A DNA stretch of 64,000 nt. Source: a virus. Lineage: Duplodnaviria > Heunggongvirae > Uroviricota > Caudoviricetes. The position numbers and the translations under genes were made by a program. The notes beneath the pieces were generated by a model. The model ran no database searches. It was not told where the DNA came from and worked only from the letters and a program-made list of their open reading frames with translations. Where the stretch lies: the IMG/VR virus record IMGVR_UViG_3300026560_000023; one strand, 5' to 3'. This document shows, one piece after another, positions 37,897 to 46,102 of this stretch (the first letter of the stretch is position 1; each line of letters starts with the position of its first letter).

Positions 37897-40785
37897 GTGA
37901 TGCCCGACCCCGAGGATAGAGGAGTTAATGTGAATGTCGTCGACGTTCTTAAATCTGCTTCTAATAGTGGTGAGTCTGCTTTTACAGAGGTAGTTAAGAC
38001 AGACAAATTAGAGAAGTGGAGAATTTACGTTGACGAGGAATCGAAAATCCCTGACTGGGCCGAGGTTATTGAAGGCCCGAGAGGAGGGATATACTACTCT
38101 GTACAGGAGCAAGAGTTAGTCAACGAGTTACTGACTCCTCCTATGCACGAGGTCGGAGAAGATTTCGACCTCGAAGAATTCGACCTGAATCCATCAGATG
38201 CAGACAGGCCAGGACAGGCCAGGATTTCTGAATATTCATATGGGTCGAGAGGAGCACATAGAGTCATAGAAAGAGCAAATCAGTACGAGGATGAAGATAA
38301 TCCAGACTACTGGAGAATTTACGTCAATGATAAAGACGAGGTTCCAGAGTGGGCTAAACTACGAGGACCCAATAAACAGGGTAACTATTACTACAGGGTC
38401 CATGATGAGGGCCTATACCACGACCTCGTAACAGAACCACAGCACGAAGTCTCGAACGACGAAACACTCGAGGAGTATCTCGAAGAACATGGGGGCACAG
38501 AAGACGTTCAAGAAAAGGAAGGCCCCGAAAGAGAGTACTGGAGAGTCTACGTCGACAACGAAGAAGAGGCTCCTGACTGGGCAAACGTTGTCGGGCCAAG
38601 CTCTGAAGGAAATCTTTACTACATCGTCTATGATGAGGAGTTGTTCCGTCAGCTCGTAACTGGAATAGAGCACGAGGTTGATGATTACGACGTCGATGCA
38701 TACCTGGACGAAGTTCAGGGAGGAGATAGCATCGAAGAAAAGCTGGACGATGCGACGATTCTAAAGAGAAAATTCCAGATTTACGTAGAAGACGGAGGAG
38801 CGGTCCCTGACTGGGCACAGGCTCACGTGGGTCCTTGGGGCGGAGTTTATTACATCGTTTACTACAAACCGCTATTCGATGCTCTGATGCAGGAACCTAA
38901 GCATGAAATCCCTGGAGATTTCGACCTCCGAGATTACATGTACAATGGTCCTGGAGAAGGTGTAACTCACGATAGCGGAGAAAACGAAGAGCCTGATGAT
39001 AAGTCCAAGGGGCCTACCATCATCGACGTAGAGAAACGAAGAATCTACATTGATGAGGCCAGCGAGGCTCCCGATGGAAAGCAGATACACCAGGGAGATA
39101 AAGGTGGCTTATACTACATAGCAGGCAGTGATAGCGCCGAAGAGGAATCGGACGAAAAGACAGAGGGGGAATATCATACCTATTCCGACTTCGGTGAGCG
39201 CCTCGCTGACGCGATTGAGAGCGGAGATATAGAAGATATTTCTCCGGGGGAATACGGAGAAGGCATAGACACGATAAGTGATGGAGACCTCTTAGAGGAC
39301 GCATACAGACTTGAAACGAGAGAGGCTGTAAGAAGGGAAATCGAAGGATGGGCGACCCAGTTAAACAACCACTTCGATTATGCTTACCAGGAAGATGGTC
39401 CCCGAATCACAGGTCCTGAACTCAAAACCTGGGAGCAAGTAGAGTCTCTATCGGATAGAGATTATGAAGATGATGATATTTCTGCTATGGCTTCCAAGGT
39501 AGTAGATGAGTGGGAGGAATACGCAGAAAAGGGTGTAGATAGAGATAACAGAAACAAATTCAGAGAGCGAGTTGGAAAGGTAGACGAGGAAGTCGTCATC
39601 TTCAACCTCTGGGAAAGAGGCCTGAAAAAGTTTAGTGAGTTAAACACCATCCTGGAAAACGCTCTGAACGAGAAAGGTTATTCTGCTCGGACAGAAGCAA
39701 TACCTGGAGAACAACGTCGTCTGGACCTCAAGTATAATTACAGTATCGACGAGGATATTGAGGGAGAATTCGCAGACGATATTGAAAACGGGCAAATCCT
39801 TCGCATCACCTCTCAGGAGGACTGGTCTGACAGGCTCGGAGAAATGGATAACATCGACTTCCTCAATGATGCTAAGACAGCCATCCGTCATAAGGGAATT
39901 TCTAAGGATTCCTCGGTTGTGCAGGGTATAAAGAAAAGAATCCGGGAAATTGACTCCCCATCCCTGGATGAATATGACATTAAGCCTGAGGTTTACAGGC
40001 AGATAGTAAATCGTCCAGCCGGATTCAAGGGTACTGGTCAAGGAATCCACAAGAAAAGTTGGGGAGAAGTATGGAATAAGGTTTCTACAGAGGACCTGGA
40101 GGAGTTCTGCGAGATAGCAGAGGAAAGAAATAACTTCGCACACTCAAGCCTCGTTAGGGGAATGCTCGTCTACCGTAAAGAGTGCCCTATTTCGTCCAGA
40201 GATATGACTTCTCTTACGTATAAAGGAGGAGACGTCGACGAAGAAGCTCTATTCAACATAATGGAGCAAATCCTTGCGAAGTTGGACCCGGTCGTGGGCA
40301 GTCATTTACTCGCGTATCTGACAACTGCCAGAGGAGAGCAGATGAGCGGCAATAAAGAGGGATATGTCCTATTTAGAGGGGAAATGGCCGTGGATGGCCG
40401 TAAAACCCGGGATATACATGGTATTAGGGTCGTGTTTGCCCATTGTATAGGGCATATCCTACACGATTTAATGGGTCTGGACAACAAGGAAGTCGAGGAC
40501 AACGAGGATGAAGACCTCGGAGACGGTCTTGGATACAGTGTTATTCAACCAAAGAACGAATACAACACCTATGTACAAGACTTCTACGAGAAAATCCGTA
40601 AGGAATGGACACGATACACCTCAGAAGACGAAAATGAATGTCGTGTTTACCAGAGAATCAACCCTTCCGAGTTCTTCGCTACCTTATTCGCGTTGTGGAT
40701 TACCGACGAAAAGAAGTTAGAGATTCTACACAAGCCTATGCACACGGCCTTTGAGGCCTTCTTTGCAGAGGAGAGTGATGTGTAA
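37897..40785 (+). CDS. Large acidic protein with five copies of the (R/W)IYVD-x4-(A/V)PDWA-x6-GG-YY motif
   Basis: 962 aa; repeats at roughly aa 41, 131, 214, 293 and 383. Confidence 0.5.
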   Translation: MMPDPEDRGVNVNVVDVLKSASNSGESAFTEVVKTDKLEKWRIYVDEESKIPDWAEVIEGPRGGIYYSVQEQELVNELLTPPMHEVGEDFDLEEFDLNPSDADRPGQARISEYSYGSRGAHRVIERANQYEDEDNPDYWRIYVNDKDEVPEWAKLRGPNKQGNYYYRVHDEGLYHDLVTEPQHEVSNDETLEEYLEEHGGTEDVQEKEGPEREYWRVYVDNEEEAPDWANVVGPSSEGNLYYIVYDEELFRQLVTGIEHEVDDYDVDAYLDEVQGGDSIEEKLDDATILKRKFQIYVEDGGAVPDWAQAHVGPWGGVYYIVYYKPLFDALMQEPKHEIPGDFDLRDYMYNGPGEGVTHDSGENEEPDDKSKGPTIIDVEKRRIYIDEASEAPDGKQIHQGDKGGLYYIAGSDSAEEESDEKTEGEYHTYSDFGERLADAIESGDIEDISPGEYGEGIDTISDGDLLEDAYRLETREAVRREIEGWATQLNNHFDYAYQEDGPRITGPELKTWEQVESLSDRDYEDDDISAMASKVVDEWEEYAEKGVDRDNRNKFRERVGKVDEEVVIFNLWERGLKKFSELNTILENALNEKGYSARTEAIPGEQRRLDLKYNYSIDEDIEGEFADDIENGQILRITSQEDWSDRLGEMDNIDFLNDAKTAIRHKGISKDSSVVQGIKKRIREIDSPSLDEYDIKPEVYRQIVNRPAGFKGTGQGIHKKSWGEVWNKVSTEDLEEFCEIAEERNNFAHSSLVRGMLVYRKECPISSRDMTSLTYKGGDVDEEALFNIMEQILAKLDPVVGSHLLAYLTTARGEQMSGNKEGYVLFRGEMAVDGRKTRDIHGIRVVFAHCIGHILHDLMGLDNKEVEDNEDEDLGDGLGYSVIQPKNEYNTYVQDFYEKIRKEWTRYTSEDENECRVYQRINPSEFFATLFALWITDEKKLEILHKPMHTAFEAFFAEESDV

Positions 40786-44873: not shown

Positions 44874-46102
44874 AACCAAGCATAATTGAAGACGGCAAGG
44901 GAGTTGGCTGGTTCGATACTGAAACCGGAAAGTATGAGTATCGAGGAGAGTATAATTCTGTAGAGACCATCTTAAGAAGGGCAAAGGGCTTTACTGAGCA
45001 AGTGAATCCCGAGACAGAGATAGCGCCCTATGACCCAGAGGACCCTCACAATGAGGAGTGGAAGGACGCCTCTGATGAGTCTATTACGAAGCAACTAAGA
45101 CAGCTCTTATCCCTCTATGATGATGTAGAGGTCAAGACAGAAAAGCAGAAATCCATCCAATTCTTCGACGGTACAGACAACGTATGGAAAAGAAGAATTT
45201 ACGTTGATAGTCCCAGCGATGCTCCTGAGTGGGCTGATGTTCAACAGGGAGAAAGGGAGGGGTTGTATTATGAGACTCAAGGAGAGGCTGGAGGAGGTCA
45301 AGAGGGAGATGCAGAATCTTTCCCACAGCGTCTCAATACAAACTATGCGGTCAGTAGTGAATCCTTAAGAGATACCGACGATAACCAGAAGGGACGCTAT
45401 GCTTCTACGATGGAAGTCCATACTCTGGAAAACGGGGATACAATCTATACTAAGGCAGGAGAGCCTGACCATATGATTAGCGAAGCTATGTCCGACACGG
45501 TACTTGATTCCATGGGGGTTAATGCTCCAATGACTGCCTATAATCAGGAGACCGGAGAGGTTCATAAAGAAGGAGTAGATGGACATACCATAGGTCAGAT
45601 TACGGGAGCTGCCTACAAATTCAACTTTATGATAGACAACGAAGTCTATGATATGATGGATGAAGGGGTTTTTGATGAGGATTCCTACTATGAGGCAGTC
45701 GCGGGTATGATTATCACAGGCAACGATGACCTGAATTCTGGTAATTTGCTCGCAGACGATGGTGGGCATTTCTGGGTCATCGACAATGATAACCTCGGAG
45801 AGAGAAACATGTCCTACGACCCACAAGAGGCAGCGTACATAGCAGAGAGCGCTATGTCATACGGGAAAGCGATGGATATGGATGTCAACAAAGACGAGTT
45901 ACGACAAAAAGTTAATGATGTAGCAGGGCGCATATGGAATGAAGAGGAAGGCGCCGTGACAGAGGAATTCAATAGCGCATTAGAGAACGCAGCGAATCAC
46001 GGTGTCGAGGATGACCCAAGGAATTCAACAGACGCTATCAAAGAAAACATTACAATGAACGTGGAAGCAGCTGTAAATGACGAACTCGAGTGGTCCTCAT
46101 AA
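44870..46102 (+). CDS. Large acidic protein with one RIYVDSPSDAPEWADVQQGEREGLYY repeat
   Basis: 410-aa ORF. Confidence 0.5.
   Translation: MKPSIIEDGKGVGWFDTETGKYEYRGEYNSVETILRRAKGFTEQVNPETEIAPYDPEDPHNEEWKDASDESITKQLRQLLSLYDDVEVKTEKQKSIQFFDGTDNVWKRRIYVDSPSDAPEWADVQQGEREGLYYETQGEAGGGQEGDAESFPQRLNTNYAVSSESLRDTDDNQKGRYASTMEVHTLENGDTIYTKAGEPDHMISEAMSDTVLDSMGVNAPMTAYNQETGEVHKEGVDGHTIGQITGAAYKFNFMIDNEVYDMMDEGVFDEDSYYEAVAGMIITGNDDLNSGNLLADDGGHFWVIDNDNLGERNMSYDPQEAAYIAESAMSYGKAMDMDVNKDELRQKVNDVAGRIWNEEEGAVTEEFNSALENAANHGVEDDPRNSTDAIKENITMNVEAAVNDELEWSS

Follow-up and report, generated by a model that had tools for sequence, protein, structure and literature searches.

A widespread 30-residue motif in the head module of a Druskaviridae-like halovirus as a candidate adaptor for head-interior proteins

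We analysed a 64-kb stretch of IMG/VR record IMGVR_UViG_3300026560_000023 (hereafter the window), in particular its head module (34079-51264), where several predicted proteins share a motif, or tag, of about 30 residues. An initial annotation had reported at least nine copies of this motif in four consecutive proteins of 962, 448, 798 and 410 amino acids (aa), here called p962, p448, p798 and p410. Scanning the window in all six frames with a regular expression for the motif gave nine matches; every one lies on the + strand, from 38020 to 45271, and the rest of the window has none. A looser scan added a copy at the N-terminus of p798 and a degenerate copy in the portal protein, and together with a hidden Markov model (HMM) built from ten window copies it brought the total to eleven copies, ten strong and one degenerate, which span 35984 to 45271 on the + strand. 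Strong copies have HMM domain E values of 1e-14 to 2e-18; the next best open reading frame (ORF) in the window has E = 3.1. The six-frame scan thus bears out the motif as real, and the copy numbers given for the four proteins (five, one, two and one) agree with the regular-expression and HMM scan, but a tenth strong copy, in a 106-aa ORF (p106), and the degenerate eleventh copy in the portal had been missed. All four proteins carry the motif; because the tagged p106 lies between the 448- and 798-aa genes, however, they are not strictly consecutive. An acidic segment, HEV.DD.DL..Y, was also said to follow each copy, but we find it only after copies 1-4 of p962, and among 297 motif instances from other viruses this tail occurs in five, all of them in p962-like proteins. 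The tagged genes and the motif copies are as follows.

34079-37567, + strand: portal protein, 1162 aa, with the portal domain at about aa 1-580 (phrog_18178, E = 2e-184)
35984-36082, + strand: degenerate motif copy NIRIWIKDPEEAPEEAEVVHDPDEDVPADYYYE in the portal extension, without the G-x-R-G-G turn (scan)
37897-40785, + strand: p962, with five motif copies in its N-terminal 420 aa (phrog_32688, E = 8e-20)
38020-38097, + strand: p962 copy 1, RIYVDEESKIPDWAEVIEGPRGGIYY, followed by the HEV tail (HMM E = 2.5e-17)
38314-38394, + strand: p962 copy 2, RIYVNDKDEVPEWAKLRGPNKQGNYYY, followed by the HEV tail (HMM E = 4.2e-15)
38542-38622, + strand: p962 copy 3, RVYVDNEEEAPDWANVVGPSSEGNLYY, followed by the HEV tail (HMM E = 7.3e-15)
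38776-38853, + strand: p962 copy 4, QIYVEDGGAVPDWAQAHVGPWGGVYY, followed by an HEI tail (HMM E = 1.1e-14)
39040-39117, + strand: p962 copy 5, RIYIDEASEAPDGKQIHQGDKGGLYY, without the HEV tail (HMM E = 3.2e-16)
40785-42131, + strand: p448, with an N-terminal region, one motif copy and a tentative kinase-like domain (BLASTP)
41259-41336, + strand: p448 copy, RIYIDDRNEAPDWADVEEGPRGGMYY (HMM E = 1.6e-18)
42122-42442, + strand: p106, 106-aa ORF with a C-terminal motif copy (ORF list, scan, HMM)
42335-42412, + strand: p106 copy, RMYVDHPVDAPEGVEVQDSEHGAPYY (HMM E = 2.9e-15)
42477-44873, + strand: p798, with a motif, a ParB-like signature region, a second motif and an HExxH region (scan)
42519-42605, + strand: p798 copy 1, KSREYVDDPSEAPEWADVQQGEQGGYFYD (HMM E = 8.8e-18)
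43485-43562, + strand: p798 copy 2, RIYVDDASEAPDDVNVEEGERGGLYY (HMM E = 4.6e-16)
44870-46102, + strand: p410, with an N-terminal domain, a linker, the motif, a linker and a tentative kinase-like domain (AlphaFold2, alignment)
45194-45271, + strand: p410 copy, RIYVDSPSDAPEWADVQQGEREGLYY (HMM E = 1.9e-18)

Copies lie at aa 42, 140, 216, 294 and 382 of p962, aa 159 of p448, aa 17 and 337 of p798 and aa 109 of p410. Between the portal and MuF genes, p962, p448, p106, p798 and p410 each carry at least one copy, and p98, a small ORF right after the portal gene, has none. DNA identity among the copies is only 63-76%, and the repeat is therefore kept at the peptide level; a recent DNA duplication or a DNA-level repeat was considered as the cause and dropped for the same reason. 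The genes that follow are:

46090-47043, + strand: MuF-like head protein (p317), 317 aa, at the end of the module (BLASTP E = 1.7e-45 to the HCTV-1 gpF-like protein and 6e-41 to HVTV-1 gp114)
47734-49893, + strand: prohead protease/scaffold protein, 719 aa (phrog_23555, E = 8e-121), with no motif copy
49894-51264, + strand: major capsid protein (MCP), 456 aa (phrog_24667, E = 3e-220), with no motif copy

These matches confirm that the tagged genes lie between a portal-like and a MuF-like gene, as first proposed. The Pfam model Phage_Mu_F matches p317 below its cut-off (E = 0.0011), and the motif HMM has no match in this protein; downstream of the capsid gene a PHROG profile identifies a tape-measure protein. 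The MCP is 66-68% identical to those of HVTV-1, HCTV-1 and HCTV-5, siphoviruses of Haloarcula in the Druskaviridae, and the proteins are strongly acidic and halophile-like, with Asp plus Glu making up 22-25% of residues. No nucleotide-level match to the region was found among 50,697 phage records. Identical proteins occur in several metagenomes, and an IMG/VR contig (L031/L043) has the same ORF lengths and the same motif positions. Judged from the MCP identity, the PHROG profile matches and the acidic proteins, the window is therefore part of an uncultured Druskaviridae-like halovirus, and the motif genes are in its head module.

Sequence, predicted fold and distribution of the motif

The core of the motif, about 30 residues long, reads K-x-R-[VI]-Y-[VI]-D-x-P-S-E-A-P-[DE]-x3-V-x-E-G-x2-G-G-x-Y-Y-E, and the broad consensus is K-x-R-[VR]-Y-[VI]-D-D-P-S-E-A-P-E-x-x-x-V-Q-E-G-P-x-G-G-x-Y-Y-E-T. 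Across the 297 instances, conservation falls to background on both sides of these roughly 30 columns, and 68% of the 15 residues after the motif are G, S, T, D, E, P, N or Q, against a background of 53%. Net charge per residue is -0.13 for the motif in acidic proteins and +0.03 in non-acidic ones, with whole-protein values of -0.17 and -0.01, respectively. AlphaFold2 (AF2), given a 65-sequence alignment, predicted a three-stranded β-meander with predicted local distance difference test (pLDDT) values of 89, 87 and 81 for the block, a topology on which all five models agreed. BFVD models of proteins from HVTV-1 and from an 'uncultured archaeal virus' superpose at 0.5-0.8 Å over 26-29 residues. 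No known fold matched the AF2 motif model. The motif is thus predicted to be a self-contained mini-domain that folds on its own, a bead on disordered linkers rich in G, S, D and E.

No Pfam-A model covers the motif, either among the window proteins, at E ≤ 0.1, or among small proteins made up of the motif only, at E ≤ 1, and no NCBIfam model does so; PHROG 24083, whose function is unannotated, is the only family that does, in keeping with the initial annotation's view that the motif matches no recognised domain. Its description as novel is apt insofar as we found no account of the motif in the searchable literature, but Druskaviridae genomes already published contain the element, as do 528 protein clusters. 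The P-S-E-A-P segment was compared with the retroviral P(T/S)AP late domain, a candidate that we dropped because the sequence does not fit the pattern; to our knowledge, haloarchaea lack ESCRT.

Among cultured viruses the motif is present, unannotated, in HVTV-1 gp113 (aa 12-42 and 121-139), gp115 (aa 19-46; the protein itself is annotated as 'zeta toxin') and gp116 (two copies), and in HCTV-1 gp106 and gp109. An exhaustive search of 1.84 billion representative proteins with a profile of the ten window copies recovered 528 clusters at E ≤ 1e-3, 104 of them at E ≤ 1e-10; a word-indexed homology search with the motif alignment returned nothing, such an index being poorly suited to a motif of 30 aa. 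About four-fifths of the listed motif proteins are acidic in the manner of halophiles, and the rest carry a Lys-rich variant such as KAKVYVKNPSEAPSGVKVQEGKRGGHYYES. A single protein has between one and five copies, with 30 to 1200 residues from one to the next.

We also used a degenerate DNA pattern for A-P-x4-V-x2-G-x-R-G-G-x-Y-Y on IMG/VR and on prokaryotic genomes. In IMG/VR it picked out 52 loci with GC contents (guanine plus cytosine) of 28 to 69%, every one of which was HMM-positive (52/52), and 18 of the 52 have at least two tagged ORFs. In 596 Gb of prokaryotic genomes the pattern hit only two contigs, both from archaeal metagenome-assembled genomes (MAGs; Pacearchaeota and Methanospirillum), and searches of the 50,697 phage records by tblastn with two consensus variants matched Druskaviridae only. 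A distribution restricted to archaeal viruses was nevertheless discarded: the low-GC loci L005 and L009 encode an N-acetylmuramidase, a bacterial-type RecA and DnaB, and because of these bacterial-type genes the distribution is not strictly archaeal.

Tagged proteins and co-occurring domains

The portal protein is 53-56% identical to the HVTV-1 and HCTV-1 portals over aa 1-580 (BLASTP), and its length of 1162 aa compares with 622 aa in both of those viruses. Its C-terminal extension of about 580 aa has the degenerate motif at its start and a PI3/PI4-kinase-like region at aa 939-1042. The degenerate copy is closest to the N-terminus of HVTV-1 gp113 (aa 5-41, 50% identity by BLASTP), and the corresponding copy in the near-identical IMG/VR contig L043 scores 14 bits with a broad HMM. 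The extra C-terminal half of the portal resembles the product of an in-frame fusion to an N-terminus of the gp113 type. The kinase-like region matches Pfam PI3_PI4_kinase at E = 2.7e-5 (24.6 bits, under the 27.1 cut-off) and TIGR03843 at E = 3.8e-5, and it bears the canonical kinase-like signature G-N-R-D-R-H-D-D-N ... I-D-N-G-G.

Two segments outside the motif are also shared. Portal aa 579-632 (35813-35974) resemble aa 157-207 of the MuF protein HVTV-1 gp114, and p448 aa 115-149 (41127-41231) resemble HCTV-1 gp109 aa 1091-1125 and HVTV-1 gp116 from aa 31 onwards; both segments may be extra linker or processing elements.

Beyond its five copies, p962 has a C-terminal domain homologous to HVTV-1 gp113, which aligns with the HEMGH metallopeptidase motif of HVTV-1 and HCTV-1. 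The site that reads HEMGH in HVTV-1 gp113 reads HCIGH in p962 (about aa 849-860, 40350-40600) and HLVAH in the relative P0002. Because the catalytic Glu is lost in HCIGH, the metallopeptidase-like domain of p962 is probably inactive. The short p106 is kept in related IMG/VR contigs, with motif-bearing equivalents in L024, L031 and L044. In p798, a ParB-like signature, GRHRALAAMEAGYDEIPV, at about aa 305-330 ends just ahead of the second motif, and an intact HExxH (AHEYAH) follows at aa 584 (44220-44260); neither the ParB nor the peptidase signature has Pfam support at E ≤ 0.1, and none of six homologous proteins carries a Pfam annotation.

The proteins p448 and p410 are paralogous (BLASTP E = 1.4e-22 over 282 aa), each with the motif followed by a domain that has a kinase-like catalytic loop, and the N-terminal region of p448 resembles the N-termini of the HVTV-1 MuF protein gp114 and HCTV-1 gp107 (BLASTP). 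The p410 loop reads TGNDDLNSGN...IDNDNLG, and the loops of both proteins are variant forms. Ten metagenomic orthologues of p410, 40-71% identical to it, have the motif columns among their most conserved positions, and the flanks vary. AF2 on full-length p410 (11 sequences) gave a mean pLDDT of 58, with 73-86 for aa 1-90 and values below 50 for the linkers around the motif, and left the kinase-like domain unresolved. The top Foldseek matches of this low-confidence model, HipA and PI3K, are coherent but all non-significant, and an NCBIfam Kdo-kinase model matches p410 at E = 0.0099. Searches with the p448 and p798 sequences and with a p410-family profile found nothing significant among PDB sequences. 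Calls of kinase-like, ParB-like and metallopeptidase-like domains in the window proteins are tentative. A second N-terminal domain common to p98, p106, p410, p448 and the MuF protein was considered and dropped, as an HMM of the p410 N-terminus matches p410 only.

The domains that accompany the motif in other viruses were taken from Pfam scans of 86 motif-bearing proteins. Head domains in this set are Peptidase_S78, Phage_portal and Phage_Mu_F, and the effector domains comprise Zeta_toxin, DRAT and other ADP-ribosyltransferases (ARTs), GNAT, RelA_SpoT, DUF192, SAM lyase, TopoIB, PI3_PI4_kinase, Fam20C, ParB_N, poly(A) polymerase and metallopeptidases. This repertoire of polyvalent effectors and head components supports the earlier remark that the window proteins are reminiscent of polyvalent internal proteins. 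At non-acidic motif loci, the neighbouring genes encode capsid, portal, MuF, terminase and S78 protease proteins.

Certain architectures recur. A portal domain is followed by the motif at aa 520-600 in L039, L007, L050 and L053, and in L010 the order is portal, motif, ART. The motif follows an S78 protease domain after 4-30 residues in P0141 and L033 and stands after S78 and DUF5661 in L046; it precedes a PI3_PI4_kinase domain in L051 (29.3 bits, over the 27.1 cut-off) and, in a further recurrent arrangement, TopoIB. On the Pacearchaeota-MAG contig L055, five consecutive ORFs have one N-proximal copy each: two are DRAT-like, one combines a zeta toxin with a glutaredoxin, and two have no assigned domain. 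By this comparison of gene orders, the arrangement seen in the window is one that recurs in very distant viruses. Of 30 non-acidic motif proteins 3 contain DUF5661, which we observed at L005 and L046, and so do 4 of 107 ORFs next to motif genes; the domain may work together with the motif.

Possible roles of the motif

Polyvalent proteins of phages (Iyer et al. 2017, PMC5512222) are believed to be packaged into virions and injected. The tagged genes resemble them in their neighbourhood of portal, MuF and prohead protease genes, in the presence of zeta toxin, ARTs, ParB, GNAT, RelA/SpoT, kinases, metallopeptidases and TopoIB in the motif-bearing set, and in the fusion of relatives into large proteins (HVTV-1 gp115 with 1313 aa; P0002 with 2063 aa). 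A protein of 1873 aa at L033 has HNH, DRAT-like and kinase-like domains. Within the window, matches to the polyvalent repertoire are sub-threshold or signature matches only (PI3_PI4_kinase at 24.6 bits, HExxH, ParB-like). Whereas a polyvalent protein has two to fifteen distinct effector domains, the window set is spread over six genes whose products have one to three modules; a further difference is the 30-aa tag on these products, of which a term search of PMC5512222 found no mention; in that text 'halo' is absent and 'archaea' occurs 3 times. The window proteins look, from their sequences, like a polyvalent effector set divided over separate genes, and the system would then be a split version of a known kind, namely virion-associated polyvalent effectors encoded beside portal and MuF genes, plus an undescribed and widespread tag. 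Phages also have MuF-linked polymorphic toxins; unlike these and the polyvalent proteins, the tagged window proteins are without a MuF domain, as Pfam Phage_Mu_F has no match in p962, p448, p106, p798 or p410.

We favour, at roughly even odds (a probability of about 0.5), the interpretation that the motif serves proteins of the head interior as an adaptor for docking or targeting. During procapsid assembly the tag would attach to one shared partner inside the head, candidates being the scaffold or the inner surface of the capsid, the portal crown, or other copies of the tag; effector enzymes would thereby be loaded into the head and delivered along with the DNA, and p962, with its five copies, would act as a multivalent hub. 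This interpretation is suggested by the occurrence of one tag per gene product, a pattern typical of sorting signals, by the presence of the tag on components built into the procapsid (portal and prohead protease), and by its position, in some viruses, after the S78 domain, where the HK97 protease has a capsid-targeting tail. The latter role for the region after the HK97 protease domain was reportedly described by Duda, Oh and Hendrix in 2013, a paper that PMC12749128 cites.

Known capsid-targeting signals include the capsid-targeting sequence of T4 internal proteins, the C-terminal tail of the HK97 gp4 protease and the cargo-loading peptides of encapsulins. Like these, the motif is a short element common to otherwise unrelated cargo of one HK97-fold shell, the cargo role here being predicted, and it usually occurs once per polypeptide, often near the N-terminus or, in some viruses, directly after the S78 domain. 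It differs in having about 30 residues with a predicted β-sheet fold rather than a linear peptide of 10 residues, in being often internal and repeated, and in spanning hundreds of viral lineages, whereas the known signals are lineage-specific; we found no sequence similarity between the motif and these signals. In phage P1, DarB and similar large enzymes enter the head via adaptor proteins and are co-injected with the DNA (PMC12810830). The P1 adaptors DarA and Hdf are separate proteins, unlike a tag embedded in each protein, and no homology of the tagged proteins to Dar proteins was found.

Several points weigh against a docking or targeting adaptor. Incorporation of the motif proteins into heads is a prediction and the partner a candidate; the portal has no obvious need of a targeting tag; and the MuF protein and protease of the window are without a tag by the motif HMM. 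When AF2 modelled the motif within p410, its native setting, pLDDT was only about 40-56. The motif is, moreover, highly conserved despite very different MCPs (SU10_MCP-type at some loci, with no Pfam match for the MCP here). This would be surprising in a tag that recognises a fast-evolving capsid or scaffold surface and is easier to reconcile with self-association or with a ligand that does not vary.

A broader proposal is that the motif is a conserved, transplantable cargo-loading tag of HK97-fold heads that portal, prohead protease and ejected effectors all carry, in haloarchaeal, DPANN-associated, methanogen-associated and marine viruses as well as in some that are probably bacterial; self-association into an internal network is a possible mode of action, and the virion adaptor of chlorella giant viruses might have the same ancestry. 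We consider this extension tentative and on the doubtful side. Should it be true, the motif would be the first signal for head targeting whose conservation extends across viral lineages.

The choice of proteins that are loaded into heads and injected is understood for only a few model phages (such as T4, P1, P22 and HK97), each with its own signal, and here hundreds of viral lineages, the cultivable HVTV-1 and HCTV-1 among them, have their candidate cargo marked by one 30-residue element. If the motif is a true loading signal, it would allow the injected effector arsenal of uncultured archaeal viruses to be predicted from sequence, would offer a testable account of packaging for split and fused polyvalent effectors alike, and could possibly serve as a tag for loading foreign proteins into virions. 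Whatever the mechanism, the motif defines an undescribed and well-delimited domain family that merits a database entry.

Among the alternatives, the one that survives best, though we judge it unlikely, is that the motif is a processing signal, one that the prohead S78 protease or the metallopeptidases of the module would recognise. Cleavage at or beside it would split polyvalent precursors, free effectors from portal and protease fusions and remove N-terminal propeptides. A parallel is the T4 capsid-targeting sequence, which serves as a targeting signal and is also cleaved. Placement speaks for processing: the motif stands at domain boundaries of fused proteins at the wide spacings noted above, between portal and ART in L010, 4 to about 30 residues past S78 domains, and near the N-terminus of stand-alone proteins. 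The Glu after Y-Y is nearly invariant, non-acidic variants included, and metallopeptidase-like HExxH domains occur in the module (p798) and in HVTV-1 gp113, domains of a type predicted to process polyvalent proteins (PMC5512222). Conservation of about 30 residues with a β-sheet pattern and a confidently predicted fold argues otherwise. Known head-protease sites are unstructured and span 3-4 residues. In addition, the copies in p962 lie 76-98 residues apart with no enzymatic domain between them, such that cleavage would release small fragments only, and motifs are kept in p962 (HCIGH) and P0002 (HLVAH) despite the lost peptidase Glu.

Less likely again is a nucleic-acid tether akin to the PBCV-specific basic adaptor (PF08789), which would keep the enzymes and the portal crown on the packaged genome, so that they exit the head together with the DNA. 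DNA would be an invariant ligand, which would account for strong conservation across very divergent viruses. The window profile matches the 34 PF08789 repeats of protein P0027 in columns 24-38, where the V-x2-G-P-R-G-G-x-Y-Y hairpin is held in common, and hhalign gives a probability of 93.9% over 25 columns, against a template of low diversity (effective sequence number, Neff, 1.8). In PBCV-1, PF08789 is fused to virion-packaged protein kinases. Two of these fusions of kinase and basic adaptor, A278L and A282L, are abundant in virions and associated with DNA (PMC3281028), and kinase-like domains likewise follow the motif here. The likeness is, however, limited to the β2-β3 hairpin of an alignment almost without diversity, and the P0027 repeats are missing the first strand and the P-S-E-A-P loop. 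The Pfam model (gathering score 20.4 bits), which scores 73.4 bits on P0027, has no match in nine window proteins (E ≤ 0.1) or in the motif-only proteins (E ≤ 1). Unlike the PBCV adaptor, the motif is not basic, its charge being near whole-protein values, and the PBCV domain belongs to eukaryotic giant viruses without HK97-type heads. Finally, DNA binding alone cannot load proteins into a procapsid. In tailed phages, the procapsid assembles ahead of DNA packaging. We therefore treat the resemblance to PF08789 as a lead suggested by sequence comparison, not as membership. P0027 itself is non-acidic, with 3223 aa comprising 34 tandem PBCV_basic_adap repeats and then a UDP-glucose pyrophosphorylase domain, a very large expansion of the PBCV adaptor outside chloroviruses.

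Least probable is a role on the host side after delivery, in which the motif binds a conserved host component and localises or activates effectors, or else a mere rigid spacer: the tag is mainly on enzymes predicted to hit host targets (ARTs, zeta toxin, kinases, GNAT) and its flanks are linker-like, but portal C-termini with no recognised domain after the motif and adjacency to the prohead protease have no obvious host rationale, a common host target is unlikely given how widely the inferred hosts differ (Haloarcula for the cultured relatives, Pacearchaeota and Methanospirillum MAGs, contigs with bacterial-type muramidase, RecA and DnaB), and a spacer would not keep the invariant Tyr/Pro/Tyr and Gly-Gly over 528 clusters.

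Other features of the window

A set of 29 tRNA genes covering most amino acids occupies about 11 kb on the + strand (10116-21500; ARAGORN), unusually large for a virus with an HVTV-1-like head module. Further downstream, 25655-29025 encodes a MoxR/CobS-like ATPase of 422 aa (phrog_249, 'porphyrin biosynthesis', E = 9e-56) and then a CobT-like protein of 667 aa.

Directly upstream of the portal gene (32163-34061) lie an HNH endonuclease (phrog_24545, E = 3e-50), a Cys-rich ORF of 222 aa and a Holliday-junction-resolvase-like protein (phrog_6591, E = 6.5e-12). No terminase profile matched among the scanned ORFs upstream of the portal; in HVTV-1, by contrast, the terminase gene is upstream of the portal gene with just an HNH gene between them. 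Between the MuF and protease genes, an acidic ORF of 140 aa with no PHROG match is on the - strand (47036-47458), and the equivalent position of HVTV-1 holds an HNH endonuclease gene on the reverse strand. Lastly, a 446-aa ORF runs antisense to the whole capsid gene (49900-51240, - strand); it is most likely a by-product of gene composition and not a real gene.

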